Assembly: GCA_963745025.1 (NCBI GenBank)
Contig: CAVUWD010000020.1
Location: forward strand, 207,527-271,526
DNA length: 64,000 bases
Direction: 5' to 3'
Origin: an uncultured delta proteobacterium
Lineage (GTDB): Bacteria; Desulfobacterota; Binatia; JACPRU01
Every line of letters begins with the position of its first letter. Positions within the stretch are counted from its first letter, which is position 1. Below the pieces are notes generated by a model. That model worked only from the letters and a program-made list of their open reading frames with translations, was not told the DNA's origin and did not search any database. Positions 31,584-57,270 of the stretch are shown here, in pieces. The position numbers and the translations under genes are program-made.

Positions 31584-32442
<859 letters not shown>

Positions 32443-32461
<19 letters not shown>

Positions 32462-32973
32462 TTTTCAATGGCAAACCCAACGACGCGGGCCGGGTCTATC
32501 CGGCCCGCGACGGTGGCCGGTTCTGACCCATTCGCGGGGGTCAAAACCAGGTCCCCGTCGAGCAAACCGAGGATCATCGTCTTTGCCGTCGGCACGTCCG
32601 TCTTGATGGCCCGCCGTAGCCCCCGCAGGTAGCTCCGCAGGTCCCGGGGGTCGATCGCCGTGGGGGCCCGTACGGCCCGCTTCTCGAACTTCGCTCGCTC
32701 AAGATCGGCGGTAAGGCCCGCGATCTCCTGCTCGACCGCCGCCAGCCGGTCGCGCACGGCGGTGAACGCCTCGCCCCCGCTGCCGATGGCGTCCAGCCAT
32801 CGCTTCTGCTCGGCCTTCGCCTGATCGAGCCGTTCGCGCAGCTCGTCCTCTCGTCCGCTGGTCCGGTCGATCGCCCGTCGAAGCGCGTCGTTGACCGCCG
32901 TCGCGAGCGCCGCGATGTTCTTCCTGGTCATCGCCTCGGCCGCATCGCCGCACCGCAGGAACCCCGTGAGCAA
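32443..32973 (-). pseudogene. Large serine recombinase C-terminal remnant (zinc-ribbon start, internal deletion, coiled coil) ending inside the tRNA
   Basis: YLLTGFLRCG, coiled coil, terminal CGGRI* read antisense on the tRNA T-arm; homologous to 38560-38760. Confidence 0.8.
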
Positions 32974-34352: not shown

Positions 34353-34366
34353 AGAGATTGACAAGC

Positions 34367-34775: not shown

Positions 34776-34888
34776 CCGCTCCTCCGCATTGGTTCAGGAG
34801 TTCGTCAGGATTTGCGCCAGCTCGGAGGCTGCGTCACGAATCGCTTCCGTTGGTCGCGATCCCCGCTCCGGCCGCGCCAACTGCCGAG

Positions 34889-36286: not shown

Positions 36287-37441
36287 ATGACTACAATGCT
36301 GCTGTCGAGCGTCTTCCCCGTCCTCTATCTCGTTTCGCGCTCGGTCCGCTTCTCTGGCGCTCGAAGGAATCGCGAACGCGTCGTCGTTCTCGGCACCGGG
36401 GTTGGGGCGCGTAAGCTAGCTGCGGTCGTCGAATCCGCTGCTCCTCCCTCCTCCGTGGTGGGATTCGTCGCGGAAGGAAACGGACTTGATCCCACCCTGC
36501 TGAGCTTGACACTTCCCCGCCCGCTGCTCGGCAATCTCTCAGAGTTGAAGGCGATCATCGATTCGGTGCAGCCGGCTCGGATCATCGTGGCGCTCAGCGA
36601 TCGGGGCCGTCGCCCGCCGATTCAGGCGCTTCTCGAGTGCGGGGCATGCGGAGTTGCCATCGAGACCTCGGTCCAAGCCTACGAGCGTCTCAAAGGGAAA
36701 TTCGCCATCGAGAACATGACGCCGAGCTACCTGCTCTTCTCCGGACTCTTCTGCGGATCGATCCGCATAAGGCAGCGCCAGGAAGCAATCGCCCGGGCCG
36801 TCAGCGTCGCGATTGCACTCGTCGGATTGATCATTGCCGCGCCGCTCATCCTGATCGTCGCCGCACTCATCAAAATCGATTCTCCGGGCCCTGCCTTGTT
36901 CGTCCAAGAGCGCATCGGGCTCTTCGGCAAGACCTTCAAGCTTCTCAAGTTCCGAACCATGAAGGTGGGTAAGAAGACGTCGTCCGAGTGGGCACGCGAC
37001 AACGCCGATCGCATCACCCGCGTGGGAGGGTGGGTTCGCAAGTTTTGGCTCGACGAGCTACTCCAGTTCATCAACATTCTTCGCGGCGACATGAACCTGG
37101 TTGGTCCGCGACCGCATCCGGTATCGAACTACGAGCTCTTCTCGAAGAACATTCCCTACTACGGTCTGCGCGGCAGCGTGCGCCCGGGTCTCACTGGCTG
37201 GGCACAGCTCAGAAACGGCTACGCCAACAACCTCGAGGAAGAGACCGAGAAGATGCGGTACGATCTGTACTACATCAAGAACCGGTCGCTCTGGCTCGAC
37301 CTGCGAGTCATCCTCGAAACCGTGAAGGTCGTTCTCTTTGGGCTGAAGGTAAGCCCGCCGCCTCCGGAGCTGTGTTGGCAACCAGTCGCTGATTCGGCCG
37401 TTGCCAACGACCCGAATCAGGAGCTCGGGACCGTAAGCTAG
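36287..37441 (+). CDS. Exopolysaccharide priming polyprenyl-phosphate glycosylphosphotransferase (possibly N-truncated)
   Basis: VVVLGTG, IKIDSPGP, KFRTM, RITRVG, GDMNLVGPRP, PGLTGWAQ, YDLYYIKN. Confidence 0.92.
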   Translation: MTTMLLSSVFPVLYLVSRSVRFSGARRNRERVVVLGTGVGARKLAAVVESAAPPSSVVGFVAEGNGLDPTLLSLTLPRPLLGNLSELKAIIDSVQPARIIVALSDRGRRPPIQALLECGACGVAIETSVQAYERLKGKFAIENMTPSYLLFSGLFCGSIRIRQRQEAIARAVSVAIALVGLIIAAPLILIVAALIKIDSPGPALFVQERIGLFGKTFKLLKFRTMKVGKKTSSEWARDNADRITRVGGWVRKFWLDELLQFINILRGDMNLVGPRPHPVSNYELFSKNIPYYGLRGSVRPGLTGWAQLRNGYANNLEEETEKMRYDLYYIKNRSLWLDLRVILETVKVVLFGLKVSPPPPELCWQPVADSAVANDPNQELGTVS

Positions 37442-37498: not shown

Positions 37499-37850
37499 TT
37501 AGGCTAGCTCGGCCCGTAGCCCGTCCTCATGGCCGCTGGCCCGCACCGCGAACCGTTTCAACTCGTCGTTCACGGCTGCGACCAACGCGGCGACGGGCTT
37601 TCGCTTCATCGCCTCCATCGCGCGGCTCATGAGCCGAGGCTCGATCGCGTCCTTGCGGTAGCGTTTGGTGTGGCCGCAGATCACTTCGCCCTTCGTCTTC
37701 GAGACGGGGCAATATTATAATACCAAGATTGCTGGTAGACCCGGTTCGGCTTCCGTCGCGTCGTGGTGATCGCAACCATCCGCGCCCCGCACGATCCGCA
37801 GCGGAGCATCCCCGTGAGCAGATAGCGATTCGAATGGACGACCCGAGATC
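37499..37850 (-). pseudogene. Large serine recombinase zinc-ribbon fragment fused by deletion to the TerS-like start
   Basis: YLLTGMLRCGSCGARMVAITTTRRKPNRVYQQSWY, matching LLNGLLRCAACGGRMEIITTTRQKNRQTYAQRWY at 56.4 kb. Confidence 0.8.
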
Positions 37851-37871
37851 GGATTCGCTGGGCGCGGCGGC

Positions 37872-37943
37872 GCGTTTTTCTGCCCCCGGCCACGGCACCA
37901 AATATAACGAAAAGCTGCGACTAGCTGCGATCCTCCGGCCTTA
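37872..37943. repeat. Conserved backbone motif, copy 1
   Basis: GGCCACGGCACCAAATATAACGAAAAGCTGCGACTAGCTGCGATCCTCC; copies at about 43712 and 50082. Confidence 0.85.
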
Positions 37944-38371
37944 GTTCGTTCTGTGGACGTTTCACTCGGGCGTCAACGCCCCCCGTAATTTTGGCTGAAT
38001 ATAGTATTCTTGAGCCGCGCCTGCTAGATTTTTTCTGCGGTGACTAGGTTTCCTTTCGCGCCGGCGATGAGGACTACGCGAGCGGCGGTGCGCACGATTG
38101 ACCCGGCGCAATCCAAGGCGCGCGCTGAACATGAAGGGCGGTGTTTCGGAGACCGGGTGTCGCTGTTCATGCGATGCGAGTATTCTACCACCGACAGCGG
38201 GTGCGGACGCACCGGCCCCTCGCCACGCCCGTAGTTGGAGATCGCACGATGCCTGGCGGTCCGGGACCGGCTCCACGCGTGCGATCGTCACACCGCACAA
38301 TCGCGGGCGCGACGCGCGCCCGATTCCCCGCGCGACGGGTGGCGAACCGGCGATCCCGCGTTGCACGTAAC

Positions 38372-38560
38372 CGGTCCCAAACCCGCCGCTATAACCCATG
38401 CCCGGACACCCCTGGGATCGCCCGGAAACGGCCCGTGCGGCCCCGCAACGGCCCCGATCCGGGCCGTAACCATCAACCCGGTAAATCGACCGTGAATTTG
38501 ATGGGTTCCATGGCGATCGCCAACGCGGTCGCCGGTCCATTCGAATCGCGCCCCCGCAAT
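38372..38560. repeat. Element right end plus att core, copy 1
   Basis: Homologous to 55601-55776; ends TTCGAATCGCGCCCCCGCAAT, resembling the tRNA 3' end. Confidence 0.85.
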
Positions 38561-38760
38561 GATCAATCGCACACCCAACAAGGCGGGCCGGGTCTATCCG
38601 GCCCGTCACGTTGGCCGGTTGACCGTCCGTCCCGGGGGTCAAAACTAGGTCGCCGTCGAGCAGCCGCAGGATCATCGCCTTGGCCGTCGGCACGTCCGTT
38701 TTGATCGCCCTCTGCAATCCCCGCACGTAGGACCGTAAGTCCCTGGGCTCGATCGCCGTG
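38560..38760 (-). pseudogene. Large serine recombinase extreme C-terminal remnant
   Basis: RAIKTDVPTAKAMILRLLDGDLVLTP...GRIDPARLVGCAIDHCGG, nearly identical to the 32443 remnant. Confidence 0.8.
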
Positions 38761-38863
38761 GGTGCCCATCACACCCATCACGCGCCCCCGGCCCGCTCCC
38801 GGAGCGGATTTCCCGCGTTTTCACACGGCCCCGGCGGCGACGCCGGGCGAAGAGGAGCACAGC

Positions 38864-39022
38864 ATGACGAAGACGACGACGACACCACCGCCGAAAGTTC
38901 CGCCTCCCGTCGAACCCGCCGAGCCAGTTTTCTGCGCGGTCTGCGGATCGAGCGACCCCTCGTGTCACGTAAATCGAAACGCACCACCACCGCGAAACGA
39001 TGGTGAGAATGATGGGCGCTGA
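38864..39022 (+). CDS. Small Pro-rich CxxC peptide
   Basis: RBS GAGGAG, MTKTTTTPPPK...FCAVCGSSDPSCH; overlaps next gene. Confidence 0.4.
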   Translation: MTKTTTTPPPKVPPPVEPAEPVFCAVCGSSDPSCHVNRNAPPPRNDGENDGR

Positions 39023-39338
39023 CCCAGCCGCCGTCTTTCAACCGGTGGCGGTGTTGCCCGACCCACCGTCGAGGCGGACGACGCCCGAGATTCGCCTGCT
39101 CGTTGCACTCCTCGACGACGCCATCGGCCTCGCGACCGGTCGATACGTCCCGACGGTCGGCGGCGACCACACCTCGCGCGGCCGCGCGAACGCCCAGCGG
39201 CGCGTCATCGAAGAGGCACGCGAGTGGATCACGCGCGGCGACGTCGGCGCGATCACGTTCGACGACACGTGCGGTGCGCTCGGCCTCGACCCGGGCTTGG
39301 TTCGTGCGGCGCTGCTACGGAAAGAGAGGCGTCGATGA
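39009..39338 (+). CDS. Hypothetical helical protein of the element backbone
   Basis: PEIRLLVALLDDAI...EAREWI...TFDDTCGALGLDP; diverged paralog at 47891-48218. Confidence 0.7.
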   Translation: MMGADPAAVFQPVAVLPDPPSRRTTPEIRLLVALLDDAIGLATGRYVPTVGGDHTSRGRANAQRRVIEEAREWITRGDVGAITFDDTCGALGLDPGLVRAALLRKERRR

Positions 39339-39679
39339 AATGCAAGGTATGTGGTGTCCGCCCCGCGAACAGCCGCAGGCACCCCGGGCTTTGTGCCAGG
39401 TGCTCGGTCGCCAACGCAGGGCGTGGACCCGGTCCACGCCGATCCCCGATCGCGCCCGGAGAAATGCGGAGGCGATCCGGGCAAAGATCGGAAAATCTTG
39501 CGATCGCTCTCGCTCTCGCTCGTTCCAACACGCCCAGCAGATGTAACAGGAAATCTTCTCATGAAATTCTCGACCCAATTTTCCACGCTTGCCTCTGGAT
39601 CGATTTTTGTGTCATCTACGCACCGGAGCGCGACCTCTCGAATCGGGAGTGTCACCGAGAGTACATTATATCGGCATGA
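39335..39679 (+). CDS. Putative zinc-finger protein (CxxC...CxxC); C-terminus doubtful
   Basis: ATG overlaps upstream stop; MKCKVCGVRP...GLCARC; duplicated at 48215-48559. Confidence 0.45.
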   Translation: MKCKVCGVRPANSRRHPGLCARCSVANAGRGPGPRRSPIAPGEMRRRSGQRSENLAIALALARSNTPSRCNRKSSHEILDPIFHACLWIDFCVIYAPERDLSNRECHREYIISA

Positions 39680-39772
39680 TCGGCCGAATTGGTGTAAGGG
39701 CTTGATATTTTACCCTGCCGTACACGACACCGCCCCGAGGCAATCGATCTTACGGCGGTTCGACGACAACAG

Positions 39773-40375
39773 ATGCTGAATATGACTGCTCTCTGGAAGC
39801 ATCGGCTGACTCGCGTGGCAGTTTTGGTGAGTTGCTTCAGCGGAGCCGCATCGGAGTTACGCGCGGATCCCCTCACCTTTGAAAGCGCCTTCTTCTTGCT
39901 CAGTTCGTCGGGCGCGCGGCTCGATCTCTTTTCCAACCCGGGCGTCGTCATCGAGCCGAGCACTTACGAGAGAACGATCTTTCCACCCGCGTTTATATTC
40001 TCAACAATTGTCCCCTACGCCGGTGGACCATCAATTACTGACACTATCCGATTCACGTACCAGGAAATGGGCTCCGCACCGGAGGAGTTGCAGCAGTCGT
40101 TCAGCACAGGGATCGATCCGGTGACGCTCGGCTTCGTCGCGAGGTTCGAGCCGATCAGCCACACTGGCATGCTGGTACCGGCAACACTCACCGTTGATCT
40201 GTTGAATAGTGCTCCGGACTTTGTGATCCCAGCCGGACCAGATCAGGGCCAGCTGGTCGATTCGTTCACATATACGTTTTCGACTTTCACGCCTACACCA
40301 GAACCCTCGACATTGCTCCTGCTGGGTACCGGCGTCGCATGCGTGGCGCTAAGACGTTGCCGAAGGCTGACCTGA
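39773..40375 (+). CDS. PEP-CTERM sorting domain protein (copy 1)
   Basis: Signal peptide, TPEPSTLLLLGTGVACVALRRCRR. Confidence 0.9.
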   Translation: MLNMTALWKHRLTRVAVLVSCFSGAASELRADPLTFESAFFLLSSSGARLDLFSNPGVVIEPSTYERTIFPPAFIFSTIVPYAGGPSITDTIRFTYQEMGSAPEELQQSFSTGIDPVTLGFVARFEPISHTGMLVPATLTVDLLNSAPDFVIPAGPDQGQLVDSFTYTFSTFTPTPEPSTLLLLGTGVACVALRRCRRLT

Positions 40376-40786
40376 ACGAACTTCTCCGGTTTACGGTTCC
40401 CGGGTTCTATGCCTCCTCGTTCTGGGGTTAGTATAGGGACTGGCCTTTCCTACAGTTCCTTTCCAGCACGTGGCGGCTCATGCATGTATCCGTGGGGACG
40501 CTGAGGTACGGCACCGAGGAGGAGCGCCGGCAACGCCGGAGGAGGTCCTTTCGCGTCAGAGGCTCGGAGACCAACCGCTCCACCAGATTTTCGGGCACGC
40601 CGATAGGCCAAAGTCTCCACTTCGATTCGCCCTGATTGCGATTCAGCCGCGGCCGGAGGGCCGAGATCAATGCCGTCTCCACGGTGCTTCCGCCCTGTCC
40701 GCTCGGCCTCGGCGGACACCTGAAAGCCAGCCATTAAAGGACGGGTCAAAACCGGCCATTATCGGGGCGGCCGGGACGGGGTTGGT

Positions 40787-41550
40787 CTAGCTGTTCTTGT
40801 CCTCGGTGTTCAAGGATCCGCTGTTCTTTGTTCTCCAGCTTCGTGGCCCGCACTTGAGTACATGACCGTGCTGCGAGCAGGCGATCGAGCATGGCGGCGA
40901 CGGCGGGCGTATCGCCGAGCAGCTTGCCCCAATCCTCCACGGGGCGATTGGAAGTCATCAGCGTGCTGGCCCGCTCGTGCCGACGCATGACGACTTCGAG
41001 GAGATCCTCGGCAGCAGTGGCGGGAAGCTTGCGCATGCCGAGGTCGTCGATGATCAGCAGCGGCACGGACTGTAGCTCGGCGATCTTGTCCTTGCGCGAG
41101 CCGTCGATGGTGGCGTCGGCGAGCTCTTCGAGCAGGAGCGTGCGTCTCGCGGTAGAGCACACGGTGGCCCTGCCGAATGGCAGCCAGGCCGATGGCCTGA
41201 GCGAGGTGACTCTTCCCGGTGCCCGGCGGACCGAGGAAGAGAGCGTCTTCTCGGCGATCGATGAATTGGGCGGTGGCGAGCTCGAAGACCAGGCGGCGAT
41301 TCATCTTCTTGTTGAAGTCGAAATCGAAGGCATCGAGGGTCTTGTCCGGCTCGCGAAACAGAGCGTGCTTGGTACGGCGCTGGAGCAGCCGATCGGCTCG
41401 GATGGTGAGCTCGTCGGAGACGAGCGTGGAAAGGAAATCGATCGGAGCCATGTGAGCGCTCTGCGCTTCGAGGATACGAGGCTCGAGGGCCTGGGCCATG
41501 CCGCCGAGGCGTAGCTGGCGCAGCGACCGTTGCAGCTCGATGAGATTCAT
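40787..41550 (-). CDS. istB: IS21 helper ATPase IstB (apparent frameshifts)
   Basis: FDFDFN, GPPGTGKSHLA, LLIIDDLG, TSNRPVEDW, AMLDRLL. Confidence 0.88.
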
Positions 41551-43113
41551 CCTTCTCCTCCTTGGTGAGATTGTTGATGACGTTTCGGTAGTGGGTGAGC
41601 TCGCGGATGAGAGGATCGATTCTGCGCAGCGAGAGCTGCACGGGCGGATGCCGCTCGAGGTAGCGGCGCACGAAGCGGTACGTGGGGACCGCGAGATCGA
41701 GCGCGGCGGCGCAGGCATCGTCGACGGCGGGAGCTCCGTACTTGCGGGCGAGCGAGAGCACGCCGAGGATGCGCCGCACGCCGTACTCCTTCTCCCGGTC
41801 GTAGATCTCCTTGGCGAGACTTCCGATGTGCTTTCCTGCCCGCTCGGCGCGAAAGAGCAGATCCTGCGTGCCGCGGGGCGTGCGCGACGGCCGATCTTGC
41901 TCCTGCGTGCGGTAGTTTCCCGGCCGGTGCCGCAGGTGCTCGCGCAGCAGCATCCCGCTCTTCGGATCGAGGATCCGCACCTGGAAGTCGTCCCACTGCA
42001 CCCAGACGGCACGGCCGATGTGACCGGGCGGGACGGAGTAGTAGGCGCGGGCGACCTCGACGTGCCCGTCGAGGTGCACGGTGCGATTGCCGTACTGGTA
42101 GAAGCGGAAGGGCTCGACCGGGCAGCGGCCGCAGGAAGGGCTTCTCCTCGGCAAACATCGCCGCGACCTGGCGCTTGGTGGTGCCGTGGATGCGCGTGTC
42201 GGCCCAGTGGGTCTCCCAGCGGTCGAGATAGGCTTGGGCTTCCTCGAGTCTCTCGAAGCGGAGCCCCTTCAGCGGCGTCTTCTGCGTGTGGCCGACACTC
42301 GATTCGACTTTCCCCTTGCGATCGGGATCGCGCACGCGGCACGGCAGCGCCACCACGCCGTAGTGCGCGAGGCAGTCGCGGTAGAGAGGATTGAGCGTCG
42401 GGTCGTAGATGTCGGGCTTGAGCACGCCCTCGCGCAAATTGTCGAGCACGATGACCTTGGGCACCGCGCCGAGTCGGCGGAACGCCTCCTCGTGGAGCTC
42501 CGCCCAGACCCGAGTGCTGGAGTGGAAGACCAGGAGCCGGACGGACTTGCGGCTGTAGCCGAGTGTCAGGACGAAGAGGCGCGTGCGCCGATAGCGTACC
42601 TCCCGTGCCCGGGTGCGCACCATCGGCCCCTCGCCGTAGTCGACCTGCCTTCCTCTCCCGGCTCGGTGAGGATGATGCCGCGGGCTTCGGGCGTCTTCTC
42701 GCCGGCGAGCTTGCGCACGAATCGCTTGACGCTCGCGTAGCCGGCGACGAAGCCGTGGTCATCGACGAGGTCCTGGTAGATGGCCGTGGCATTTCGCCGC
42801 TGCGAAAGCCCGACGCTCGATCAGCTCCCGGTAACGGCTCGCAGGCGCTGGCCTGAGGGCTGCGCGTCGGCACGGCAGTCGCCTCTGGCGCTGCGTTTGC
42901 CGGGCCAGAGTCGGTGGACACCTTAATGGCCGGTTTTGGCTCCGACTGCCGTGGACGCCCCCGGCTACGGATCGCGATCCCCGCCGCGTGCAAATACGCC
43001 CGCGCCGTTTCCCGGCGCACGCCCGTCGACGCTTCGATCCGCCTCAACGGCCAGCCCAGCCGTCCAAGGGCCAGGACTTGCTGTCTCTTCTCTTCGCTCA
43101 AGACGTTGCTCAT
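41547..43113 (-). CDS. istA: IS21 transposase IstA (several apparent frameshifts)
   Basis: MSNVLSEEKRQQV HTH, LFVLTLGYSRKS, DNLREGV, KGKVESSV, RIHGTT. Confidence 0.85.
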
Positions 43114-43432
43114 CCGGCCCCGGGGGTCATCTCCCCAGGACCGCGTCAACGTCCCGTGCGCTTACCTTATTGGCCGGTTTTCAGACGTCCACTAATGGCT
43201 GGTTTTGGGTGTCCGCCGAGGCGCTCGGACCCGAAGGGACCGCAGGCTTCGAGAAGGAACTTGCGGCGTCCAAGGAACGCGGCCAGTAAGCGATTGTGGC
43301 TCGCGGACTGATGCGAGGTCGCCCGCAAGACTCTGCCGCCGTACCCGACGTACTGAGCCTTCCCGTCGAGGTCACGGTAGACGTAAACGAAATGGCGTGT
43401 TCGTTCCATGGCCGTCGTGGTAACGACGGACG

Positions 43433-43732
43433 TCACCAGCCGCCCTTGCCAAAATCGCGCCGCCACTCGCGCAGAAGGCGCGGCGTTATCTTCCAGCGCG
43501 CGCGGGGCTTGCGACGGTCAGTCCGTGACGCGTTGTACAGCTCGACCAGCATCGGGACGAGACCGAAGGAGTCGAGGATGTTCAAGAGGTAGCCGGGATT
43601 CTCCCTGGCGCACATCTCGATGAAATCGCGCTTGCGAGCGGTGCCGGGCCGGAGCGCCGCGCCGAGCATGTTCCGGCGCGGGTCGTGGCCCGCCCTGAAA
43701 TCTCTGCCGCCCGTTTTTCTGCCCCAGGCCAC
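43433..43732 (-). CDS. Conserved 99-aa backbone protein; N-terminus resembles terminase small subunit/DUF5681-type motifs
   Basis: GRKTGGRDFRAGHDPRRN; protein identical to 49803-50102 despite 7 synonymous codon differences. Confidence 0.75.
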   Translation of the reverse strand: MAWGRKTGGRDFRAGHDPRRNMLGAALRPGTARKRDFIEMCARENPGYLLNILDSFGLVPMLVELYNASRTDRRKPRARWKITPRLLREWRRDFGKGGW

Positions 43733-43785
43733 GGCACCAACTATAACGCAAAGCTGCGAGTAGCTGCGACCCTCCGCAAGCTTAG
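43712..43785. repeat. Conserved backbone motif, copy 2
   Basis: GGCCACGGCACCAACTATAACGCAAAGCTGCGAGTAGCTGCGACCCTCC. Confidence 0.85.
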
Positions 43786-43828
43786 CTCGATAAGCGTTCC
43801 GAGCCCCCGCTTGATCTCGCCAGCCACC

Positions 43829-46132
43829 TCAACGCCTGTCGTCGATGATGCCTCCGAAGCGCGAGAGCAGCTTCGGAAAAAATTCACTGTGAACGACGAG
43901 AATTTGTAAGCGCGTGTAGTGGGCAAGCTCTTGGTCACCGAGTGGAATGCGGGACGGCGGTGAAATGAAGCCCGAAAGGTGCGGCGGTACCGGATACTCG
44001 TAGATCAGGATCTCCGTGTCTTCGAGTTTCGCCTTTTCATACGGGATCTCGCCCGTGCTCGACTTGCGTAGTGTGTCAGAAGGGCTAGGCGCTGGTGCGC
44101 CAGAAAGCCCAGGCGTTGGTGTGGGAGAAGGACTCAACGTCGGTGTGTCAGACGGCTGAGGCGTCGGTGTGTCAGACGGCTGAGGCGTCGGCGTGTCAGA
44201 CGGCTGAGGCGTCGGTGTGCCAGTAAGCCGAAGCGTAGGTGCGTCAGAAGGTCCAGTCCTCAGTGCATCAGGAGGGCCAGGGGTCTCTGTGGCAGAAGGG
44301 CCGGACGTCTCTGTGCCAGAAGGGCCCGAAGGTGTCGTTGCGCCAGCTAGAGCTGCCGTCAAAGCGTCTTGATCGATTCCCGGGTCCGTCCCATCGCTCG
44401 CCATGCCTTTGTAGGGGCTGCTCTCAGACAGGCGGTAGTCATCCTTCGCCGAATCGACCCATCCCACCGCGACGTCAGATGGGGGAAAGAAGTTTCCGGA
44501 GGGATAGATGCTCGACAGGCCACCTACCCTCTGGTTGTCGACGATCACGTTGCTCTCAATCAGCAGCCCGGGCCAGCAGGTGGAGCGGGCACCGTCACCG
44601 ATGAAGCAGCTCAGTCCGTACGGGCCGTTGTTGACGATGTTGTCGATGAGCGTGAGATTCTTCGTGGGAAGATTTTCGCCGCCCCCCAGCGACTGGGAAT
44701 TCAGTATGGTGTTGTGGCTGAACACTACATCGTGACCACCGTTGGTCAGAAAGGCCTTCGAGTCCCCGCTCGGACTGATCATTAGATTGTTCTCGATGAC
44801 AACGTTTCCGCTCTGCCCGGTCACCTTCTCGTTGTCTTGGAGCTGGATGCTGAACCCCGGGTCCTTGAAGTTGATCAACTTGTTGTTGCGGAAGGTGAGG
44901 CTGGAGATTTCGACCCAAGGTGAGGAACCATTCTGATTTCTGACCGTTAAGGTGATGTTCGAGGGCGTTTCCGAGGTCACCAGGTTGCCCTCGATGGTGA
45001 CACGGCGGCCGGCTTTGATCTCGATCCAGTTCTTAGGCCCGGACATTGGAAACGTGCTCCACTCGGGGCGCTTGACCATGGTGTTGCCCTTGATCTCCAC
45101 GTCGTGGAGCACCTCGCCTCTCCAGCGCGCTTCGCCGGGTGACATCGGAGGGATGTCGAAACTCTGATATAGAGCCGTGAGCGGTGTATAGCTGATGGTG
45201 TTGCCGTTGATGTCGGTCACTCGGCCCACGCCCCAAATCGGCTGTGTCTCACCCGCAGGCGGGTCGGAAAGTTTGAAGGCCACGAGGTCGCCGACCGCGA
45301 GATCGAGCACTGTGGAGAGCGTGGCCGTCCCGATGGTCTCGGCGTCCGACACGGTCGCCGTGTGCTCGGGGAGCGGCGACGCATCGGCCCCGCCGATGAA
45401 GACGCTCGAATACCATGCCTCGAGGTAGTTGTTGACGACGTGAAGTGGCCCCGGACCCCCGTCCATCAGCACGTCCTCGGAAGCTTCGATGCCGCCGCCG
45501 TTGGGATAGTTACCGGTAAATCCGGCGATGTAAGAGTTGACTATAAACATATCACTCGCATTTGCCGCAAAACCCCGCTCCGCGTAGCGAGTCGTCGCTG
45601 GATCACTGAGATGTGTAGAGCTGATTTCAGGCGGGTGAATGAAGCAGTGATCGAACACGAAGCCTTTCATCGACAAACGCTCCCCCCATCCTGGGTTGTC
45701 ACCAGTGACCGACGACTGACCAAGTAGGATGAGGCTCGGAACAAATGCACCCTCAGTGTTTGAAATGTCGATGCCGATGAACTTCCAGTGGTTCGCTCCG
45801 GTCTTCGTGGAGAGTGGTGGCATGGTGTTCGGCGATACGAGTTTTGCCATTTCTCCTGAGTATTGGGATGGATCAAGCCGTACCCCCGCTGGCGGAAGAC
45901 TCCCGGAGGTCGTCACGGTAACGTAGTCGGAATCTCCACCCGTGCATGTCCCTCCAGGAGCTACCAACACGAACGTCCCCGTGTATGTCGCGCCTGCGTC
46001 CAAGACGAGGGTATCACCGCAGTTCGCGGCGCTTATGAAGGTTTGAAGGTTTGACCCGCTCGGCACGGATATCGTGGCCGCATTGGCAGGTCCCAACAAC
46101 AGGAGGATGAGTGCCGAAACAAGTACCGTCAT
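43829..46132 (-). CDS. Secreted right-handed beta-helix (pectin lyase-like) protein with Pro/Thr-rich tail
   Basis: Signal peptide, LQTFISAANCGDTLVLDAGATY, repeated IEGN/IENN strands, DYRLSESSPYKG..SDGTDPG. Confidence 0.8.
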   Translation of the reverse strand: MTVLVSALILLLLGPANAATISVPSGSNLQTFISAANCGDTLVLDAGATYTGTFVLVAPGGTCTGGDSDYVTVTTSGSLPPAGVRLDPSQYSGEMAKLVSPNTMPPLSTKTGANHWKFIGIDISNTEGAFVPSLILLGQSSVTGDNPGWGERLSMKGFVFDHCFIHPPEISSTHLSDPATTRYAERGFAANASDMFIVNSYIAGFTGNYPNGGGIEASEDVLMDGGPGPLHVVNNYLEAWYSSVFIGGADASPLPEHTATVSDAETIGTATLSTVLDLAVGDLVAFKLSDPPAGETQPIWGVGRVTDINGNTISYTPLTALYQSFDIPPMSPGEARWRGEVLHDVEIKGNTMVKRPEWSTFPMSGPKNWIEIKAGRRVTIEGNLVTSETPSNITLTVRNQNGSSPWVEISSLTFRNNKLINFKDPGFSIQLQDNEKVTGQSGNVVIENNLMISPSGDSKAFLTNGGHDVVFSHNTILNSQSLGGGENLPTKNLTLIDNIVNNGPYGLSCFIGDGARSTCWPGLLIESNVIVDNQRVGGLSSIYPSGNFFPPSDVAVGWVDSAKDDYRLSESSPYKGMASDGTDPGIDQDALTAALAGATTPSGPSGTETSGPSATETPGPPDALRTGPSDAPTLRLTGTPTPQPSDTPTPQPSDTPTPQPSDTPTLSPSPTPTPGLSGAPAPSPSDTLRKSSTGEIPYEKAKLEDTEILIYEYPVPPHLSGFISPPSRIPLGDQELAHYTRLQILVVHSEFFPKLLSRFGGIIDDRR
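44138..44219. repeat. 24-bp coding tandem repeat (QPSDTPTP x3)
   Basis: CGTCGGTGTGTCAGACGGCTGAGG units. Confidence 0.85.
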
Positions 46133-46509
46133 TAGATGTGTTTCCTTGTACGATCGTTTGAACCGTTCGCGGATCCGTGCCTCCTTCCCGAACGCAAACG
46201 CCAGAACGACGGCTAACGGGGCCGAGGCATGTGAGCCGAGCGTGGGCTTGCTCTAGGCTACGCAGTGCGAGGCGCGAACTTACAAGCCTCGCGGCCGATC
46301 GATGCACCGCCAGAGCGCACGCACATTGACAAGGGTGTCAGCTTGGGGATCCGCGGCAACTCTCATCGTGTCCACATCCACCATCCCCGGCCGATCTGCG
46401 CCGCGTCGTTAACACTCTCACGAGCGAGTGTCAATACTGAAGCGGCCCAAAGTTGTGGCAGGGACTGGAGCGTGCTGCGCTTCTCGCCTATCCTGACAAG
46501 CTTTTGAGC

Positions 46510-46730
46510 CTCTTCGAGCCCCATACGGAGGCGATCCGCAAGGGCAAGGCACGTCCATTGCCTTCGGCACTCCTGCGCGACCCACCTGCTCGACGCGGGT
46601 GAGCCGATCGACTTCGTCCAGGATCACCTGGGTCACCGGTCGATCGAGAGCAGTCTGGTCTACGCCCGAGTCTCCGACCGCAGGCGCACCAAAACCAAGG
46701 TCGAAGCCGATCCCGCTGCAATCGGCGTGA
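46510..46730 (+). pseudogene. Tyrosine recombinase C-terminal fragment (absent from ORF track)
   Basis: Manual translation HVHCLRHSCATHLLDAGEPIDFVQDHLGHRSIESSLVY. Confidence 0.8.
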
Positions 46731-46849
46731 TGGGCCTCACGGAGCCGTTGGTGGCGGGCGATTCTTCCCCGCAGGTAGCCGATGAAGTATCTAGGCGTTG
46801 GGGCTGCCCGCCGGGCCGGGTCCGGGAGCGCAGCGTAGGAAGGTGTGGT

Positions 46850-47054
46850 GTGGACGAAACGACGCGACAACGACTCCGCGAGTATCTCGCCGAGGTCAAG
46901 AACCTCCCCAACGAGTCGGCGAAGACCCATTGCTTCTCCGGGTTGGTTGGTCAGCTCTTTCCCGGTTCCGGCGCGACCTATGAAATCGCGAAGGGTACGG
47001 AGAAGACCATCCGCATCGGCAACAAGCTCGGCCGGATCGACGCGTACTACAAAA
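46850..47054 (+). pseudogene. N-terminus of probable type IIG restriction-modification/N6 methylase, truncated by ISL3
   Basis: YLAEVK..NESAK..F..LV..LF...EK.I....GRIDAYY cut at the IS end; family assignment is inference. Confidence 0.45.
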
Positions 47055-47782
47055 GGTTCTTCCGGAATCAGTGTGGGTAGAGATCGAGACCACCACAGTG
47101 GAAGTAGATCGCGGTCTTGAAGTTTTGGCGGTTGCGGAAGCCGCGAGCGGTGTAACGGATCCACTGAATCTTGGAGTTCAGCCCTTCACTGGCGGCGTTG
47201 GTGATCCCGTGGCGCAGATAGCTCAGGACGTTCTCGAGCCTGGTGTGAAGCATCCGCGCCTTTTGCTTGATCGGTTCCAGGCGAGATCGGATCGCCCAGG
47301 AGTACCAGCGGCGGAAGTGGTTCCGCGCGGCGCCGACGTAGCTGTAGTCCCAGAGCGACATGATGGTTTCCTTCAGCGCCCAGGCCCGGGCGACCTTGAG
47401 ATTGCTCCGGCGCAGCGGGCCGAAAGCTTTCCAGGCTTCGTCGGCAAAGGATTCGGGATTGCGTAGCCAAGTGTACTTCGTCCCGACCAGACGTTCGTCG
47501 TGCCGCACCAGCAGCTCTCGATGCTCGGCTCGACGAACTCGATCGACGGCTTCGTTGAGATGCTTGGCGATGTGGAACTTGTCGAAGACGATCTTGTCCT
47601 GGGCGGCGGGAATCCGGGCGAGGGTGGCTTGGACGTAGGGCTCCCACATGTCCATCGCGATGGCCTCGATGCCCTCGCGCTGAGCAGCGCTGAGCCCCAC
47701 CGCCCAGAAGGCCTCCAGGCTCTCTTGCTTGCGATCGTCAGCAACAAACAGGACCCGTGGCCCTTCAAGATCGGTCACGGTG
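47055..47782 (-). mobile_element. ISL3-family remnant (3' third of transposase plus one IR)
   Basis: AIAMDMWEPY, IVFDKFH, ITNAASEGLNSKIQ, ARGFRN, AIYFHCGGLDLYP; end GGTTCTTCC next to AAAA. Confidence 0.9.
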
Positions 47783-47890
47783 TCGCGCCGGGTCAAAGCC
47801 GACAGCCCCGCCCCCCGTCGAGCCCGACCGCTGCCAGATCTGCGGATCGATCGACGCCTCCTGTCACGCGAACCGAAAGCGCGACGGATC

Positions 47891-48218
47891 GTGAACGCTG
47901 ACCCGCTCAACATCTTCGAACCGGTGTCAGTGCTGCCCGACCCGCCGTCGAGGCGCGACACGCCCGAGCTACGATTGCTCATCGCACTCCTCGAAGACGC
48001 GATCGCGCTCTCGACCGGTCGATTACGTTCCGGCGCTCGGCGGCGACCACACCTCGCGCGGCCGCGCGAACGCCCAGCGGTGCGCCGTCGAAGAGGCGCG
48101 GCGGTGGATCGTCGAAGGCGATCGCGGATTGATTTCGTTCGACGATTGCTGCGGTGCGCTCGGCCTCGACCCGGGCTTGGTTCGTGCGGCGCTGCTACGG
48201 AAAGAGAGGCGTCGATGA
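47891..48218 (+). pseudogene. Paralog of 39009-39338 backbone protein, apparent frameshifts
   Basis: NADPLNIFEPVSVLPDPPSRRDTPELRLLIALLEDAI...FDDCCGALGLDP. Confidence 0.7.
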
Positions 48219-48652
48219 AATGCAAGGTATGTGGTGTCCGCCCCGCGAACAGCCGCAGGCACCCCGGGCTTTGTGCCAGGTGCTCGGTCGCCAACGCAGG
48301 GCGTGGACCCGGTCCACGCCGATCCCCGATCGCGCCCGGAGAAATGCGGAGGCGATCCGGGCAAAGATCGGAAAATCTTGCGATCGCTCTCGCTCTCGCT
48401 CGTTCCAACACGCCCAGCAGATGTAACAGGAAATCTTCTCATGAAATTCTCGACCCAATTTTCCACGCTTGCCTCTGGATCGATTTTTGTGTCATCTACG
48501 CACCGGAGCGCGACCTCTCGAATCGGGAGTGTCACCGAGAGTACATTATATCGGCATGATCGGCCGAATTGGTGTAAGGGCTTGATATTTTACCCTGCCG
48601 TACACGACACCGCCCCGAGGCAATCGATCTTACGGCGGTTCGACGACAACAG

Positions 48653-49255
48653 ATGCTGAATATGACTGCTCTCTGGAAGCATCGGCTGACTCGCGTGGCA
48701 GTTTTGGTGAGTTGCTTCAGCGGAGCCGCATCGGAGTTACGCGCGGATCCCCTCACCTTTGAAAGCGCCTTCTTCTTGCTCAGTTCGTCGGGCGCGCGGC
48801 TCGATCTCTTTTCCAACCCGGGCGTCGTCATCGAGCCGAGCACTTACGAGAGAACGATCTTTCCACCCGCGTTTATATTCTCAACAATTGTCCCCTACGC
48901 CGGTGGACCATCAATTACTGACACTATCCGATTCACGTACCAGGAAATGGGCTCCGCACCGGAGGAGTTGCAGCAGTCGTTCAGCACAGGGATCGATCCG
49001 GTGACGCTCGGCTTCGTCGCGAGGTTCGAGCCGATCAGCCACACTGGCATGCTGGTACCGGCAACACTCACCGTTGATCTGTTGAATAGTGCTCCGGACT
49101 TTGTGATCCCAGCCGGACCAGATCAGGGCCAGCTGGTCGATTCGTTCACATATACGTTTTCGACTTTCACGCCTACACCAGAACCCTCGACATTGCTCCT
49201 GCTGGGTACCGGCGTCGCATGCGTGGCGCTAAGACGTTGCCGAAGGCTGACCTGA
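48653..49255 (+). CDS. PEP-CTERM sorting domain protein (copy 2, identical)
   Basis: Same translation as 39773-40375. Confidence 0.9.
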   Translation: MLNMTALWKHRLTRVAVLVSCFSGAASELRADPLTFESAFFLLSSSGARLDLFSNPGVVIEPSTYERTIFPPAFIFSTIVPYAGGPSITDTIRFTYQEMGSAPEELQQSFSTGIDPVTLGFVARFEPISHTGMLVPATLTVDLLNSAPDFVIPAGPDQGQLVDSFTYTFSTFTPTPEPSTLLLLGTGVACVALRRCRRLT

Positions 49256-49307
49256 ACGAACTTCTCCGGTTTACGGTTCCCGGGTTCTATGCCTCCTCGT
49301 TCTGGGG

Positions 49308-49763
49308 TTAGTATAGGGACTGGCCTTTCCTACAGTTCCTTTCCAGCACGTGGCGGCTCATGCATGTATCCGTGGGGACGCTGAGGTACGGCACCGAGGA
49401 GGAGCGCCGGCAACGCCGGAGGAGGTCCTTTCGCGTCAGAGGCTCGGAGACCAACCGCTCCACCAGATTTTCGGGCACGCCGATAGGCCAAAGTCTCCAC
49501 TTCGATTCGCCCTGATTGCGATTCAGCCGCGGCCGGAGGGCCGAGATCAATGCCGTCTCCACGGCGCGCCCTGTCCGCTCGGACCCGAAGGGACCGCAGG
49601 CTTCGAGAAGGAACTTGCGGCGTCCAAGGAACGCGGCCAGTAAGCGATTGTGGCTCGCGGACTGATGCGAGGTCGCCCGCAAAACTCTGCCGCCGTACCC
49701 GACGTACTGAGCCTTCCCGTCGAGGTCACGGTAGACGTAAACGAAATAGCGTGTTCGTTCCAT
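49308..49763 (-). CDS. GIY-YIG (LEM-3-like) nuclease domain protein, possibly C-truncated
   Basis: FVYVY..YVGYG..R..H, VETALI, LNR pattern. Confidence 0.7.
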   Translation of the reverse strand: MERTRYFVYVYRDLDGKAQYVGYGGRVLRATSHQSASHNRLLAAFLGRRKFLLEACGPFGSERTGRAVETALISALRPRLNRNQGESKWRLWPIGVPENLVERLVSEPLTRKDLLRRCRRSSSVPYLSVPTDTCMSRHVLERNCRKGQSLY

Positions 49764-49802
49764 GGCCGTCGGTGCACCGGCAATGCGTCGTAGCGACGGA
49801 CG

Positions 49803-50102
49803 TCACCAGCCGCCCTTGCCAAAATCGCGCCGCCACTCGCGCAGAAGGCGCGGTGTTATCTTCCAGCGCGCGCGGGGCTTGCGACGGTCAGTCCGTGACG
49901 CGTTGTACAGCTCGACCAGCATCGGGACGAGACCAAAGGAGTCGAGGATGTTCAATAAGTAGCCGGGATTTTCCCGGGCGCACATCTCGATGAAGTCGCG
50001 CTTGCGCGCGGTGCCGGGCCGGAGCGCCGCGCCGAGCATGTTCCGGCGCGGGTCGTGGCCCGCCCTGAAATCTCTGCCGCCCGTTTTTCTGCCCCAGGCC
50101 AC
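49803..50102 (-). CDS. Conserved 99-aa backbone protein (TerS-like), copy 2
   Basis: Identical protein to 43433-43732. Confidence 0.75.
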   Translation of the reverse strand: MAWGRKTGGRDFRAGHDPRRNMLGAALRPGTARKRDFIEMCARENPGYLLNILDSFGLVPMLVELYNASRTDRRKPRARWKITPRLLREWRRDFGKGGW

Positions 50103-50170
50103 GGCACCAAATATAACGAAAAGCTGCGACTAGCTGCGATCCTCCAGCCTTACTGTAGTTCGTTCTGACG
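50082..50170. repeat. Conserved backbone motif, copy 3
   Basis: GGCCACGGCACCAAATATAACGAAAAGCTGCGACTAGCTGCGATCCTCC, then TAGTTCGTTCTG as in copy 1. Confidence 0.85.
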
Positions 50171-50304
50171 AAGCTCCGAAGCGAGCTCATCAACCACTAC
50201 GCCCTCAACCTGCCCGACGCGCTGCTCGACGTGCTCGAAGCCCGCGGCAAGATCCCCGCGCTGGTCGAGCGCTACAAGACGCGCGTTCGGCGCGACCCGC
50301 GGCT

Positions 50305-50360
50305 GGCGGATCTGCATGACCTTGTCGCCAACCCGGAAGAGGCGGCTACCGTGGACGATG
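50305..50360 (-). pseudogene. Very short RecD2-like helicase fragment
   Basis: HGSRLFRVGDKVMQIR motif only. Confidence 0.4.
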
Positions 50361-50379
50361 GCAGGGAATGCTCGATGCC

Positions 50380-51162
50380 CTACCTGCCCATTTCCACCTT
50401 GGTTCGGGCGGCTTCTTCGTCGGTGAGGCAGCGGCCGCGTCGAATGACATAGCCGCGCGGGCACGTCCAGTCTCCGACGCTCGCCTCGAATGGCTTCGGC
50501 CGCTTCTCCTCGCGTTCGGCTCGGTCGAACTCTTCGGCGATCCGTTCCGTCATCGCCCGTTGATGTTCTGCTTCCTCCGCAGCACGTCTTTGTTCGGCCG
50601 CCACTCGCTCCGCTTCCGCGCGTTTTTCGGCTTCGAGGACGGCGGCGAGCTCGCGGTCGCGACCCTCGTATCGCAACTCCGCCTTGCGGAGCGCCTTGTT
50701 CCCCGCCCTCCAGATCAACCGGATCGCCGAGTCTGCGTCTAGGTGATCAGCTCCAGGCTCGCCGTCGACCGGGATTCCATAGCGCGAGACGAGCGGAGCG
50801 ATGTGTGCCGACGTCGATGACACCTGAGAGCTCTTGCGCTCGATCTTCTCTCGCCACAGTGTCAGGCTATCGCCGTAGGCGAGACCCGCCTGCGCATAGA
50901 GGAACACGAGCTGACGGTCCTCCTCGCCGTCGACCTTGTCCTTCGCACCGAGAAGCTCGACCGCGAGGATCTTGGCGAGCTCGCTGAAGCGCTCATAGGA
51001 GACACCCCTCACCATCTCGCCCCGCATGGCTCTGGCCGCGCGGTCGAGCGCTGCAAACTTCCGCCGCTCGATCGCGTGGGCCCTCGGCGGCAAGAGGAGC
51101 GCTCCGCAAGCAGTGAGGCCGGCGATTGCGACGATCCATTTGCAAGACGCGCCCGTCGCCAT
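50380..51162 (-). CDS. Hypothetical exported protein with coiled coil
   Basis: Signal-like N-terminus ...LLLPPRAHA, EAEKRAEAER coiled coil, C-terminal WTCPRGYVIRRGRC. Confidence 0.6.
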   Translation of the reverse strand: MATGASCKWIVAIAGLTACGALLLPPRAHAIERRKFAALDRAARAMRGEMVRGVSYERFSELAKILAVELLGAKDKVDGEEDRQLVFLYAQAGLAYGDSLTLWREKIERKSSQVSSTSAHIAPLVSRYGIPVDGEPGADHLDADSAIRLIWRAGNKALRKAELRYEGRDRELAAVLEAEKRAEAERVAAEQRRAAEEAEHQRAMTERIAEEFDRAEREEKRPKPFEASVGDWTCPRGYVIRRGRCLTDEEAARTKVEMGR

Positions 51163-55561: not shown

Positions 55562-57270
55562 TTAGCCTCTGACAGGCAACTCTGCGACGGCGCAATCGCG
55601 CGGTCCCAAACCCGCCACGGGACACCCCGGTAATCGACCGGAAACGGGGTGCATGGGCCCCGCCCGTGGCCGGTCGGGGCCGTACCATTCACCCGGGCAA
55701 ATCGACCGTGAATTCGACGGGTTCGATGGCGATCGCCACGGCGGGTGCCGGTCTTTTCGAATCGTGCCCCCGCAATGAACTAGGATCGAATTTCCGGATC
55801 GCAGGGCCTCCTCCTGACCGAGGAGGCCCTCAGCTTTCCAGGCGCCGGTGATCTCGTAGCCCCGCTCGCCGATCTCTGCGGGCAGGGAGCGCAGGCTCAG
55901 GCTGCCTTCCAGGTGGCGGGCGATCTCGATCTTGGCGGCGGCCGGGTTCTTCGCGAGGAGTTGCTGAAGCCGCTCGAGCTTAGCGACGAGCCACTCGCGG
56001 TGGACCTTCGGTGGCAGGGCCTTCGCCCGGCTCGAGGCCGCGGCGAGTTCGGCCTCCGCGATGGCGATCCGCTGCTCGATGCCTCGGAGGCGCTCGCGCA
56101 CGGTCGAGGAGTCGCCCTCAGCGAAGAAGGCGACGAGGTTGTCTGCCTCGGCTCTGAGGCGTGCGATCTCGGCGGTGAGCTTCTTCGGGGTGCCGCGCTC
56201 GTCGCGGAGTGCCCTTTCGACGGCCTTGTTCAAGGCGGCGGCGATGCGGTCGATGAGGGCGTTGTCGCCGCGCGGAACCGTTCGATGAGGTCGGCCTCGA
56301 GGAGGTCGGCACGATAGCGGGCCGAGTGGTCGCAGATGGCCGGCCCCTTGTTGCGGGCGTCGCTGCAAAAATACCAACGCTGTGCGTAGGTCTGCCTGTT
56401 CTTCTGGCGAGTCGTCGTGATGATCTCCATGCGGCCGCCGCAGGCGGCACAGCGAAGGAGGCCGTTGAGCAGGTGCGCCGAGTAGAGGCTGGCGGCGCCG
56501 CGACGGATACCTCTGCGGCCGGCGCCCTCGTAGCGCTCCTCGATCATGCGGATCCGGGCGGCCACGGCGCGCCAGAGCGTGTCGGGGACAATGCGAAGCT
56601 CGGGCTGCTCGGCCGTTGCCCACTCCGCCTTCGGCCGCAGCAGGTAGCGCCGTGTTCCTGTGTCCGGGTCCTTGACCCACTGCCGCTTGTTCCAGATCAC
56701 GCGGCCGACGTAGCGCTCGTTGCGGAGAATCCAGCGGACGGTGACGCGCGACCAGCCCTTCCGCACTCGCTCGCGTCTCGTGCCCTTGGCGGGGAAGGGG
56801 ACGCCGGCGTCGTTCAGGGCGACCGCGATCGCGCGAAGGCTTTTCCCATCTCGGTACTCCTCGAAAATGCGGCGCACGATCGCCGCCTCCGCCTCGTCGA
56901 TCTCGAGGCGCGCCGGCTGCGAATGCTTGCCGGGACGCGCGGCGCCTTCGACCTTGACCGCGCGATAGCCGAAGGTCCTTCCGCCCGTGCTGAGGCCGCG
57001 CGTGTGCGAACCTTGCAGGTCCCGGTGCGTCTTCTCGCGCAAGTCGTCGAGATAGACCTCGTTCATCGCGCCCTTCACGGTCAAGAGGAGCTTCGCACCC
57101 TTCGCGTTCGACGCGACGCCGTCCGAGACGCCGACGATCTCCACGCCGCGCAGACGCAGGCGCGCGTTGGTTCTGAGCAGCTCGGCGGTGTCCCGCGTGA
57201 GGCGCGAAAGGTCCTCCACGAGAATCACGTCGAAGGCCCTCGGCGCGGCGAGTGATACGAGACAGGCCAT
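55562..57270 (-). pseudogene. Large serine recombinase, lacking catalytic N-terminal Y-x-R-x-S segment, frameshift at about 56265
   Basis: VILVEDLSRLTRD, GGRTFGY, EAAIVRRIF, ILRNERYVG, LLNGLLRCAACGG, coiled coil, HCGG at att core. Confidence 0.88.
55601..55776. repeat. Element right end plus att core, copy 2
   Basis: Homologous to 38372-38560; ends TTCGAATCGTGCCCCCGCAAT. Confidence 0.85.

Follow-up and report, generated by a model that had tools for sequence, protein, structure and literature searches.

Tyrosine integrases classically target genes for transfer RNA, and the tandem islands known from textbooks at such genes are products of these enzymes. Here we describe a stretch of bacterial DNA in which such an array appears to belong to a serine enzyme instead. 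The stretch, hereafter the window, comprises 64,000 nucleotides of high-GC DNA (~58-73%) from contig C20 (CAVUWD010000020.1) in the 5.6-Mb draft genome of an uncultured delta proteobacterium of the class Binatia (G000). Its region from ~32.4 to 57.3 kb is best explained as a decayed tandem array of small islands of a large serine recombinase (LSR) at a tRNA-Met gene, a reading to which we give a probability of about 0.7 and in which a gene set found twice in the region is the accessory module of the islands. In the part available of the Islander survey of arrays in tRNA and tmRNA genes (PMC4383910), 125 tandems of two or more islands and four of three or more are counted, and only tyrosine integrases are said to have been known to target tRNA genes at that time (2014). 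As in the arrays described there, the window has a full tRNA gene and, behind it, islands that each terminate at a displaced 3' fragment of the tRNA in the same orientation; the island restores the tRNA. Unlike in those arrays, as far as that part describes them, the integrase is an LSR whose open reading frame (ORF) ends inside the tRNA, and all integrases of the window are remnants; the displaced tRNA fragments also differ in being short and degenerate, as expected if little identity between attachment (att) sites is needed. The word "tRNA" does not occur in the main text of Durrant et al. 2022, and targets are broken down by integrase type neither in the 2025 TIGER/Islander note nor in the part available of the Integrase-On-Demand paper. 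A statement on serine integrases at tRNA genes after 2014 was found neither way in the papers searched, and we do not claim its absence from print. Tandem tRNA islands are already known, and the serine-integrase version at tRNA-Met is a variant of them.

Other small islands also bear comparison. Replication and phage interference are both encoded by the PLEs of Vibrio cholerae, which respond to a known helper. Like the islands of the window they are small chromosomal islands with an LSR, and their excision needs a small directionality factor (PMC6002521, in the part available); unlike with PLE, no such genes, no helper and no viral-contig relatives were found here, and a tRNA gene serves as the target. 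Among satellites PLE is the closest analogue, and beyond the LSR nothing that characterizes it was seen here. Likewise small are the integrative mobilizable elements and "minimal hitcher" islands, which carry an integrase, lack transfer machinery and would need another element to pass between cells, according to the available parts of their descriptions (PMC5704250, bioRxiv 10.64898/2026.01.13.699239); a difference is that no relaxase was identified among the window ORFs scanned, nor was an oriT, for which no dedicated search was made. Finally, the recombination directionality factors (RDFs) of LSRs are described, in the part available of PMC12286644, as small proteins without sequence conservation and without fixed synteny to the integrase gene. 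One small orphan protein of the repeated gene set, 99 aa long and tied to LSR islands, would match this profile, although RDFs have no sequence or fold signature and are defined in that part by binding and switching their cognate integrase, whereas the 99-aa protein is known here from its sequence.

The array is anchored by a tRNA-Met gene (anticodon CAT; 32388..32461, plus strand) that was found by ARAGORN and scores 64.4 bits against the Rfam tRNA model. It is the sole tRNA gene of the window, and an Rfam scan of 31-58 kb gave nothing beyond it. A first LSR remnant, consisting of the C-terminal 176 codons (32443..32973, minus strand; from the ORF list), has its stop codon within the 3' end of the tRNA gene, overlapping it by 19 nt, and is 64-65% identical to residues 327-454 of the LSR of a sister species (G001). 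To the right, two internal junctions are built alike, each comprising a block of ~140 nt that we call R, a degenerate tRNA 3' end (...TTCGAATC..GCCCCCGCAATGA) and an LSR C-terminus. The left one (38404..38562, with R at 38404-38539 and the tRNA end at 38540-38562) is attP-like and 80% identical to the right one (55620..55778, 158 nt of R and tRNA-like end, the latter at 55756-55778), which was recognized by self-comparison of the window and by alignment with another relative, G006. The left junction, 38404-38767 when its LSR part is included, runs into ~70 C-terminal LSR codons (38563..38767, minus strand), 83% identical to 32453-32669 and 71% at the protein level, and the right one runs into LSR remnant 3 (55779..57270, minus strand). 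This last remnant has the Recombinase and zinc-ribbon domains (56230-57270), shows Resolvase from profile position 57 only, has a frameshift near 56250 and has stops in all frames of its N-terminal region. The fourth remnant lies inside the first island and holds a zinc ribbon and the start of a coiled coil (37499..37893, minus strand) and is frameshifted; it matches Pfam Zn_ribbon_recom (E 5e-7) and, by tblastn in two frames, residues 255-361 of the G001 LSR, and in alignment it is fused at 37867 to the first nine codons of a 99-aa gene. The initial annotation had placed an LSR at the left end of the repeated gene set; what stands there is merely the ~70-codon remnant, and the fragment at 37499-37893 is a separate, internal piece. 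No intact LSR lies within 37872-50170, which holds only the ~70-codon remnant and one internal fragment.

A full tRNA-Met gene and two displaced, degenerate 3' ends of the same orientation, each followed by an LSR C-terminus, make up the arrangement by which tRNA island arrays are recognized, here with four LSR remnants and two internal junctions. In alignments the three-part junction of R, tRNA end and LSR C-terminus recurs in G006 and G001. All LSR copies are truncated or broken, which leaves the islands of the window unable to move alone.

The tRNA-Met locus was recovered in seven of the eight genomes of the bacterial family. Behind the tRNA gene, tblastn places an LSR or a C-terminal LSR remnant in G000, G001 and G006, blastn places a 54-nt remnant of the LSR3 type with 94% identity in G007, and G003 has a remnant of ~20 residues seen by eye only. 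In G004 and G005 a hairpin comes after tRNA-Met and no LSR lies within 1.5 kb, so that these are empty sites, in genomes that belong to other genera and gave no syntenic match downstream. Of the LSR islands seen in the bacterial family, that of the sister species is the most complete, and in it R and the next att site lie ~4.6 kb from the tRNA. Its LSR runs over 459 codons in a single frame without the first ~47 Resolvase positions, and a gene divergent to it at the same tRNA-Met encodes a 98-aa homolog of the 112-aa protein of the module. With the G001 LSR as the query against 301 genomes of the class, six genomes gave matches at E<=1e-40, and four more-distant loci were inspected. Two LSR loci of G061 had no tRNA within 1.5 kb. 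Intact LSRs were found in G180 and G186, two genomes from a different family of the class: they measure 559 and 560 aa, have the three Pfam domains (Resolvase, Recombinase and Zn_ribbon_recom) complete, and are encoded by genes that extend 44 nt into tRNA-Met (L067 17525-19237 and L068 4879-6594). LSR genes of the clade end antisense to the 3' part of tRNA-Met; they overlap it by 19 nt in the window and by 44 nt in these two genomes. A stop codon inside tRNA-Met marks the clade in at least five genomes, or seven when short remnants are counted. Since the G180 and G186 LSRs run into tRNA-Met, the LSR clade is tied to this gene, and intact members of it exist.

Self-comparison of the window confirmed that a gene set is repeated inside the array, as the initial annotation had stated. 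A direct repeat joins 39017-40706 to 47896-49582 (96.8% over 1697 nt), and a second block joins 43222-43775 to 49576-50145 (94.6% over 570 nt). The repeated module measures ~2.3 kb and has two copies, which are the only ones in its own genome: copy 1 at 38.8-43.8 kb, split by an IS21 insertion, and copy 2 at 47.8-50.15 kb. With the IS21 subtracted, the order is the same in both, namely a small CxxC ORF, the 112-aa ORF, a Zn-finger ORF and a PEP-CTERM gene on the plus strand, then a GIY-YIG-like ORF and the 99-aa ORF on the minus strand, and a 77-nt motif; the order that had been given for copy 1 was correct. In both copies one and the same PEP-CTERM gene occupies the place previously described as a first cargo slot, and the GIY-YIG-like ORF there had been overlooked.

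The identity between the copies is a mosaic. A core of 1.39 kb (39316-40706 against 48196-49582) is 100% identical, the 300 nt to its left show 76-94% identity per 50-nt window with one window at 64%, and the right arm beyond the core is ~95% identical. Two homologs that had diverged before a recent gene conversion in mid-module would give such a pattern, as would an artefact of assembly or polishing. One gene is damaged in each copy, the GIY-YIG-like ORF in copy 1 by the IS21 and the 112-aa ORF in copy 2 by a frameshift near 48025. It had been proposed that each repeat unit has an att site and an LSR; copy 2 has neither and has a truncated ISL3 transposase as its left neighbor. The lack of an att site and an LSR, together with the shared PEP-CTERM gene, the identical core and the presence of only two copies in the genome, would suit a plain segmental duplication in situ inside one old island, with a backbone that is not a mobility unit. 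We nevertheless consider that explanation improbable. The flanks of the core are 5-24% diverged, and the two copies of the 99-aa gene differ by 0.10 synonymous substitutions per synonymous site (dS), which makes the copies either old or of different origin. Moreover, a third relic of the junction between the 99-aa gene and its paralog lies in the first island (37867-37960), and the truncated ISL3 beside copy 2 offers an explanation for the loss of a junction there.

What we infer from the observed anatomy, repeats, selection and distribution is a mechanism of integration, an order of events and, as discussed below, a role for the 99-aa protein. Each island would once have been carried by an LSR with the 3' part of tRNA-Met as its insertion site, and would have brought along a replacement tRNA 3' end overlapping the end of its own LSR gene. 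Every later insertion, made into the tRNA so rebuilt, would push the older island rightward and would leave an internal junction made of the right end of the newer island, the old tRNA 3' end and the LSR C-terminus of the older island. The two module copies most probably stem from a pair of related tandem islands that lost their junction beside the ISL3 insertion, and an ISL3-linked deletion could have removed the junction to the left of copy 2. The central 1.39 kb would later have been homogenized by gene conversion, and IS21 would then have split copy 1.

Several points weigh against this reconstruction. The mechanism is drawn from anatomy alone, and no excised form, attB/attP pair or recombination was observed. 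The lack of an att site and an LSR at copy 2 leaves room for the in situ duplication considered above, and the artefact just mentioned could take the place of gene conversion in making the core identical. The right border of the array was not found, as the downstream flanks of four relatives have no syntenic match in G000. The 99-aa gene is not universal in the islands, because it is missing from the G001 element and from the surroundings of the G180 and G186 LSRs, where homologs of neither the 99-aa nor the 112-aa protein were found (20 kb and 8 kb examined). The single-base frameshifts may also be indel errors of the assembly. Contigs from four public DNA runs cover the stretch in short pieces only and bridge no repeat junction, and no public RNA runs containing the stretch are listed. 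These short-read contigs have one base fewer at 41135 and at 42835, exactly at the IS21 frame breaks, together with a 6-nt in-frame deletion variant at 39504 and a single-base deletion at 50230. Because they differ at the IS21 breaks, the single-base breaks in LSR3 and in the 112-aa ORF of copy 2 are weak evidence of decay. The large LSR truncations are unaffected by such errors.

The copies of the 99-aa ORF (43433..43732 and 49803..50102, both on the minus strand; ORF list and codon comparison) differ at 7 codons, all synonymous, through 8 nt, and the proteins are identical, as had been noted. Against the G006 ortholog, which is 85% identical, the ratio of nonsynonymous to synonymous substitution (dN/dS) is 0.13 at a dS of 0.52-0.54, and against a copy on a metagenome contig (L019) it is ~0.1. 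The dN/dS of 0.13 and the exclusively synonymous differences thus mark the ORF as a real gene under purifying selection. The gene starts within the 77-nt motif. An undefined conserved motif had been reported, and the repeat does exist, in three copies, but it consists of the first nine codons of the 99-aa gene and ~50 nt upstream. The copies lie on the minus strand at 43706..43782 (motif copy 1), at 50076..50152 (motif copy 2, from the repeat comparison) and at 37867..37943, where the relic keeps the 99-aa start and its upstream region and matches the right flank of copy 2 over ~10 nt more. Within the motif lie a tandem TCGCAGCT repeat and a TATATT box, reading TATAGT in copy 1, which precedes the GTG start by 7-8 nt. 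Its 21-nt core was counted three times in the window and never in 100 shuffles; a promoter scan gave no sigma-70-type site in copy 2.

A paralog of the 99-aa gene, truncated at its 5' end and starting from about residue 31, lies head to head with copy 2 (50159..50452, plus strand), and the relic at 37867-37960 keeps the same 99-aa/paralog junction as copy 2. The block upstream of the 99-aa gene is conserved in four of five aligned copies and abuts four different flanks, those of copy 1, of copy 2 together with the 37867 relic, of L019 and of G006. In G006 the 99-aa gene and its paralog flank, within 1.7 kb, an LSR remnant that comprises the recombinase domain and the C-terminus as well as R with a pseudo-tRNA end, and on a second contig of that genome a paralog fragment, R and a 99-aa fragment lie within ~3.3 kb. 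The 99-aa family adjoins LSR or att remnants in both genomes with readable context (G000 and G006) and is therefore linked to the islands and their ends. The association with an LSR and tRNA-Met that the initial annotation had proposed for the repeated set accordingly stands, through the 99-aa gene in these two genomes and through the 112-aa homolog in G001, but the satellite and packaging part of that proposal is not supported.

The family is rare. It has two copies in its own genome and occurs in 2 of 61 relatives (G000 counted), in 2 of 401 genomes sampled from the class and, in 401 sampled from the phylum, in G000 itself only. A collection of 5.8 billion clusters holds four clusters of it, and 1.84 billion representatives gave 14 matches at E<=0.001, ~10 of them credible; three (P0008, P0015 and P0017, repeat proteins) look spurious by sequence, and two are C-terminal fragments fused to other sequence. 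A paralogous subfamily at ~45% identity shares the start MAWG.K.GG.DF..G.DPRR. Scans with the family profile found 147 pattern-matching stretches in metagenome contigs with one confirmed (L019, 1,055 bp), 66 in genome contigs with one confirmed, and 35 in viral contigs with none confirmed.

On L019 the 99-aa gene is followed by a GIY-YIG-like ORF, as in the window. In copy 2 this ORF is intact (151 aa; 49308..49763, minus strand) and lies downstream of the 99-aa ORF; in copy 1 the IS21 separates its 3' part (40428..40706, minus strand), 88% identical to residues 51-151 of the intact copy, from its 5' part (43222..43409, minus strand), which was recognized by repeat comparison. The motifs YVY...YVGYG...R...H...E can be seen by eye in it and in a relative (P0021), and the match to Pfam GIY-YIG is weak (E 0.081, 13.7 bits against a cut-off of 22.6). 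The 99-aa and GIY-YIG-like genes could together be a selfish two-gene cassette, an antitoxin-like DNA-binder with a nuclease toxin or a unit of the homing-endonuclease type, that persists independently of the LSR by addiction or by its own spread. Both window copies and L019 have the two genes in this order and 39 nt apart, a tandem repeat precedes them at close distance in the manner of autoregulated operons, the 99-aa gene has stayed under purifying selection while the LSRs decay, the upstream edge abuts four different flanks, and both families are rare. On the other hand, G006 has the 99-aa gene and the paralog without a GIY-YIG-like gene, the GIY-YIG match stays under the Pfam cut-off, and PADLOC matched none of eight proteins, the 99-aa protein included. 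We hold such a cassette to be of low probability and keep to the array of LSR islands. Within it, we regard the 99-aa protein as a putative DNA-binding factor with an accessory or regulatory part in the island; candidate roles are those of an excision or directionality factor, of a regulator, and of a partner to the product of the GIY-YIG-like nuclease gene.

The protein itself is small, basic and mainly helical. It has no match in Pfam at E<=0.1, none in NCBIfam, none among PDB sequences at E<=10 and no usable one in the ESM Atlas, and its best PHROGs match (E 0.19) is to a family of unknown function. Its AlphaFold model is weak (pLDDT 60.9, below 50 for residues 1-29 and ~80 for a three-helix core at 34-71); with this weak model, Foldseek gave no matches at E<=0.001, and the best VIA-align Z of 4.2 was to unrelated helical proteins. 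A predicted complex with the C-terminal fragment of LSR1 scored 0.02, which speaks neither for nor against binding.

The initial annotation went further and read each copy as a very small helper-dependent phage satellite made of an integrase and a TerS-like 99-aa packaging redirector, with cell-surface cargo. Some features would suit a satellite. The elements are small, with ~4.6 kb between the tRNA and the next R/att in G001; no conjugation or replication genes were found among the ORFs scanned; and LSR-bearing satellites are known (PLE, in the part available of PMC6002521). A loose resemblance of the Gly/Arg-rich 99-aa N-terminus to DUF5681/terminase starts had also been noted in the initial annotation; none of 12 family members, however, matches DUF5681 or terminase in Pfam at E<=10. 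As had been reported, the scanned ORFs gave no capsid, primase, relaxase or type IV secretion system (T4SS) domain. Pfam, PHROG and NCBIfam gave no match to a TerS or capsid-size factor for the 99-aa, 112-aa or Zn-finger ORFs, and fold searches of the 99-aa and 112-aa proteins gave no TerS-like or other meaningful match, the 99-aa model being weak. Neither a portal or terminase gene nor a satellite-type regulator was found among the ORFs scanned, and among ORFs of at least 40 aa in 37.8-51.5 kb there was no primase or replicase and no helper-responsive regulator. The span 37872-50170 holds no working integrase, and the most complete relatives, the G001 element and the surroundings of the intact G180 and G186 LSRs, lack the 99-aa gene. 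Co-occurrence of the 99-aa family with LSR/tRNA sites, which had been suggested as a check, holds in both genomes that have the gene but does not extend to those three LSRs; because it holds, it does not refute the satellite idea, whose packaging part is without evidence. With no packaging, replication or capsid signature, no working integrase and no confirmed relative on a viral contig, we regard a helper-dependent satellite as highly improbable, and we do not take the 99-aa protein for a terminase-like packaging protein. A small island that carries only an integrase may just as well rely on a conjugative helper.

The helical protein given as 110 aa in the initial annotation has 112 aa. It is intact in copy 1 (39000..39338, plus strand; ORF list) and frameshifted in copy 2 (47885..48215, plus strand), where two matches lie in different frames. 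Its AlphaFold model is good (pLDDT 81.5, four main helices), and it gave no Foldseek match at E<=0.001, a best VIA-align Z of 5.4 to generic helical proteins only and a best E of 0.32 against PDB sequences. Relatives of 100-170 aa at 30-47% identity occur in 20 of the 21 genomes searched, and ~18 loci of its own genome encode one (for example C12:24193-24642, C13:397397-397831 and C20:114994-115377), none of them near an LSR save at the module. They share the pattern ...P.ILP.QF...E.RL..AVLEDA...EAE.WI....W.FSF.N.C..LG.DP...R.GL and match no Pfam or NCBIfam model; the nearest Atlas clusters are hypothetical proteins, commonest in Candidatus Binatota. No PEP-CTERM ORF lies within 1.5 kb of the 112-aa genes in 11 loci, the family has no conserved zinc-finger partner, and by eye no common neighbor was found in seven own-genome loci. 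The 112-aa protein belongs to a large chromosomal family and is not island-specific.

The other genes of the module add the following detail. The small CxxC ORFs (38762..39022 and 47757..47894, plus strand; from the ORF list) share the motif C..CGS.D.SCH.NR though their DNA has diverged. The Zn-finger ORFs (39332..39679 and 48212..48559, plus strand) have CxxC...CxxC at the N-terminus and no family match, and that of copy 2 lies inside the block that is 100% identical to copy 1. The PEP-CTERM protein of 200 aa has the same translation in both copies (39773..40375 and 48653..49255, plus strand); in copy 2 the Pfam PEP-CTERM match has E 4e-7, with PF07589 at 30.2 bits (cut-off 20.7) and TIGR02595 at 26.1 bits (cut-off 16). 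The IS21-family insertion in copy 1 (40707..43221, minus strand; 2515 bp) has IstA rve and IstB_IS21 matches in Pfam, inverted ends of 56 nt at 84% identity and a 7-bp target duplication (CGCTCGG), and its reading frames contain several frameshifts. The ISL3 transposase abutting copy 2 (47068..47901, minus strand) is truncated to its DDE domain (Pfam DDE_Tnp_ISL3, E 2e-63). Between the copies lies a gene for a 767-aa protein (43829..46132, minus strand) with a right-handed beta-helix and a Pro/Thr-rich linker, matching Pfam Beta_helix at E 1e-4, below the cut-off. Next to it, 46418-47164 holds a minus-strand ORF of 248 aa without a family match; by eye a plus-strand frame at 46727-47080 is more protein-like, and the coding strand is uncertain.

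Elsewhere in the array, a P-type ATPase gene (52075-54951) is 84% identical to its G001 counterpart (L049 7151-9829). Its orientation relative to the tRNA-Met flank is opposite in G001, and the region was therefore rearranged by an inversion. In the first island (33051-37441) several genes are reminiscent of exopolysaccharide/PEP-CTERM loci, among them those for a second PEP-CTERM protein (243 aa), a response regulator and a Bac_transf sugar transferase, and a 92-aa ORF resembles, by eye, the C-terminal helix-turn-helix of sigma-54 activators. To the right of the array, direct repeats join 58498-58877 to 60279-60658 (84%) and 62642-63122 to 63516-63995 (93%); by eye, the large ORFs that contain them look like paralogous genes of the regulator or cyclase type.

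Taken to its full extent, the locus could be the wreck of an undescribed family of very small islands, from ~4.6 kb upward, belonging to the tRNA-Met LSR clade, in which the LSR gene supplies the tRNA 3' end, the 99-aa/paralog family, located at the ends of the islands, serves as a directionality or mobilization factor, and transfer depends on a phage or conjugative helper. We put this forward tentatively, as a doubtful possibility. The finding of a phage satellite does not hold up, and what remains is modest but useful, namely an LSR clade at tRNA-Met, the junctions of a tandem array and empty sites in two relatives. The 99-aa and 112-aa proteins represent two families without annotation, the latter with many copies per genome in a poorly known lineage. 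The intact LSRs of G180 and G186 are candidate site-specific integrases with a conserved, ubiquitous target.

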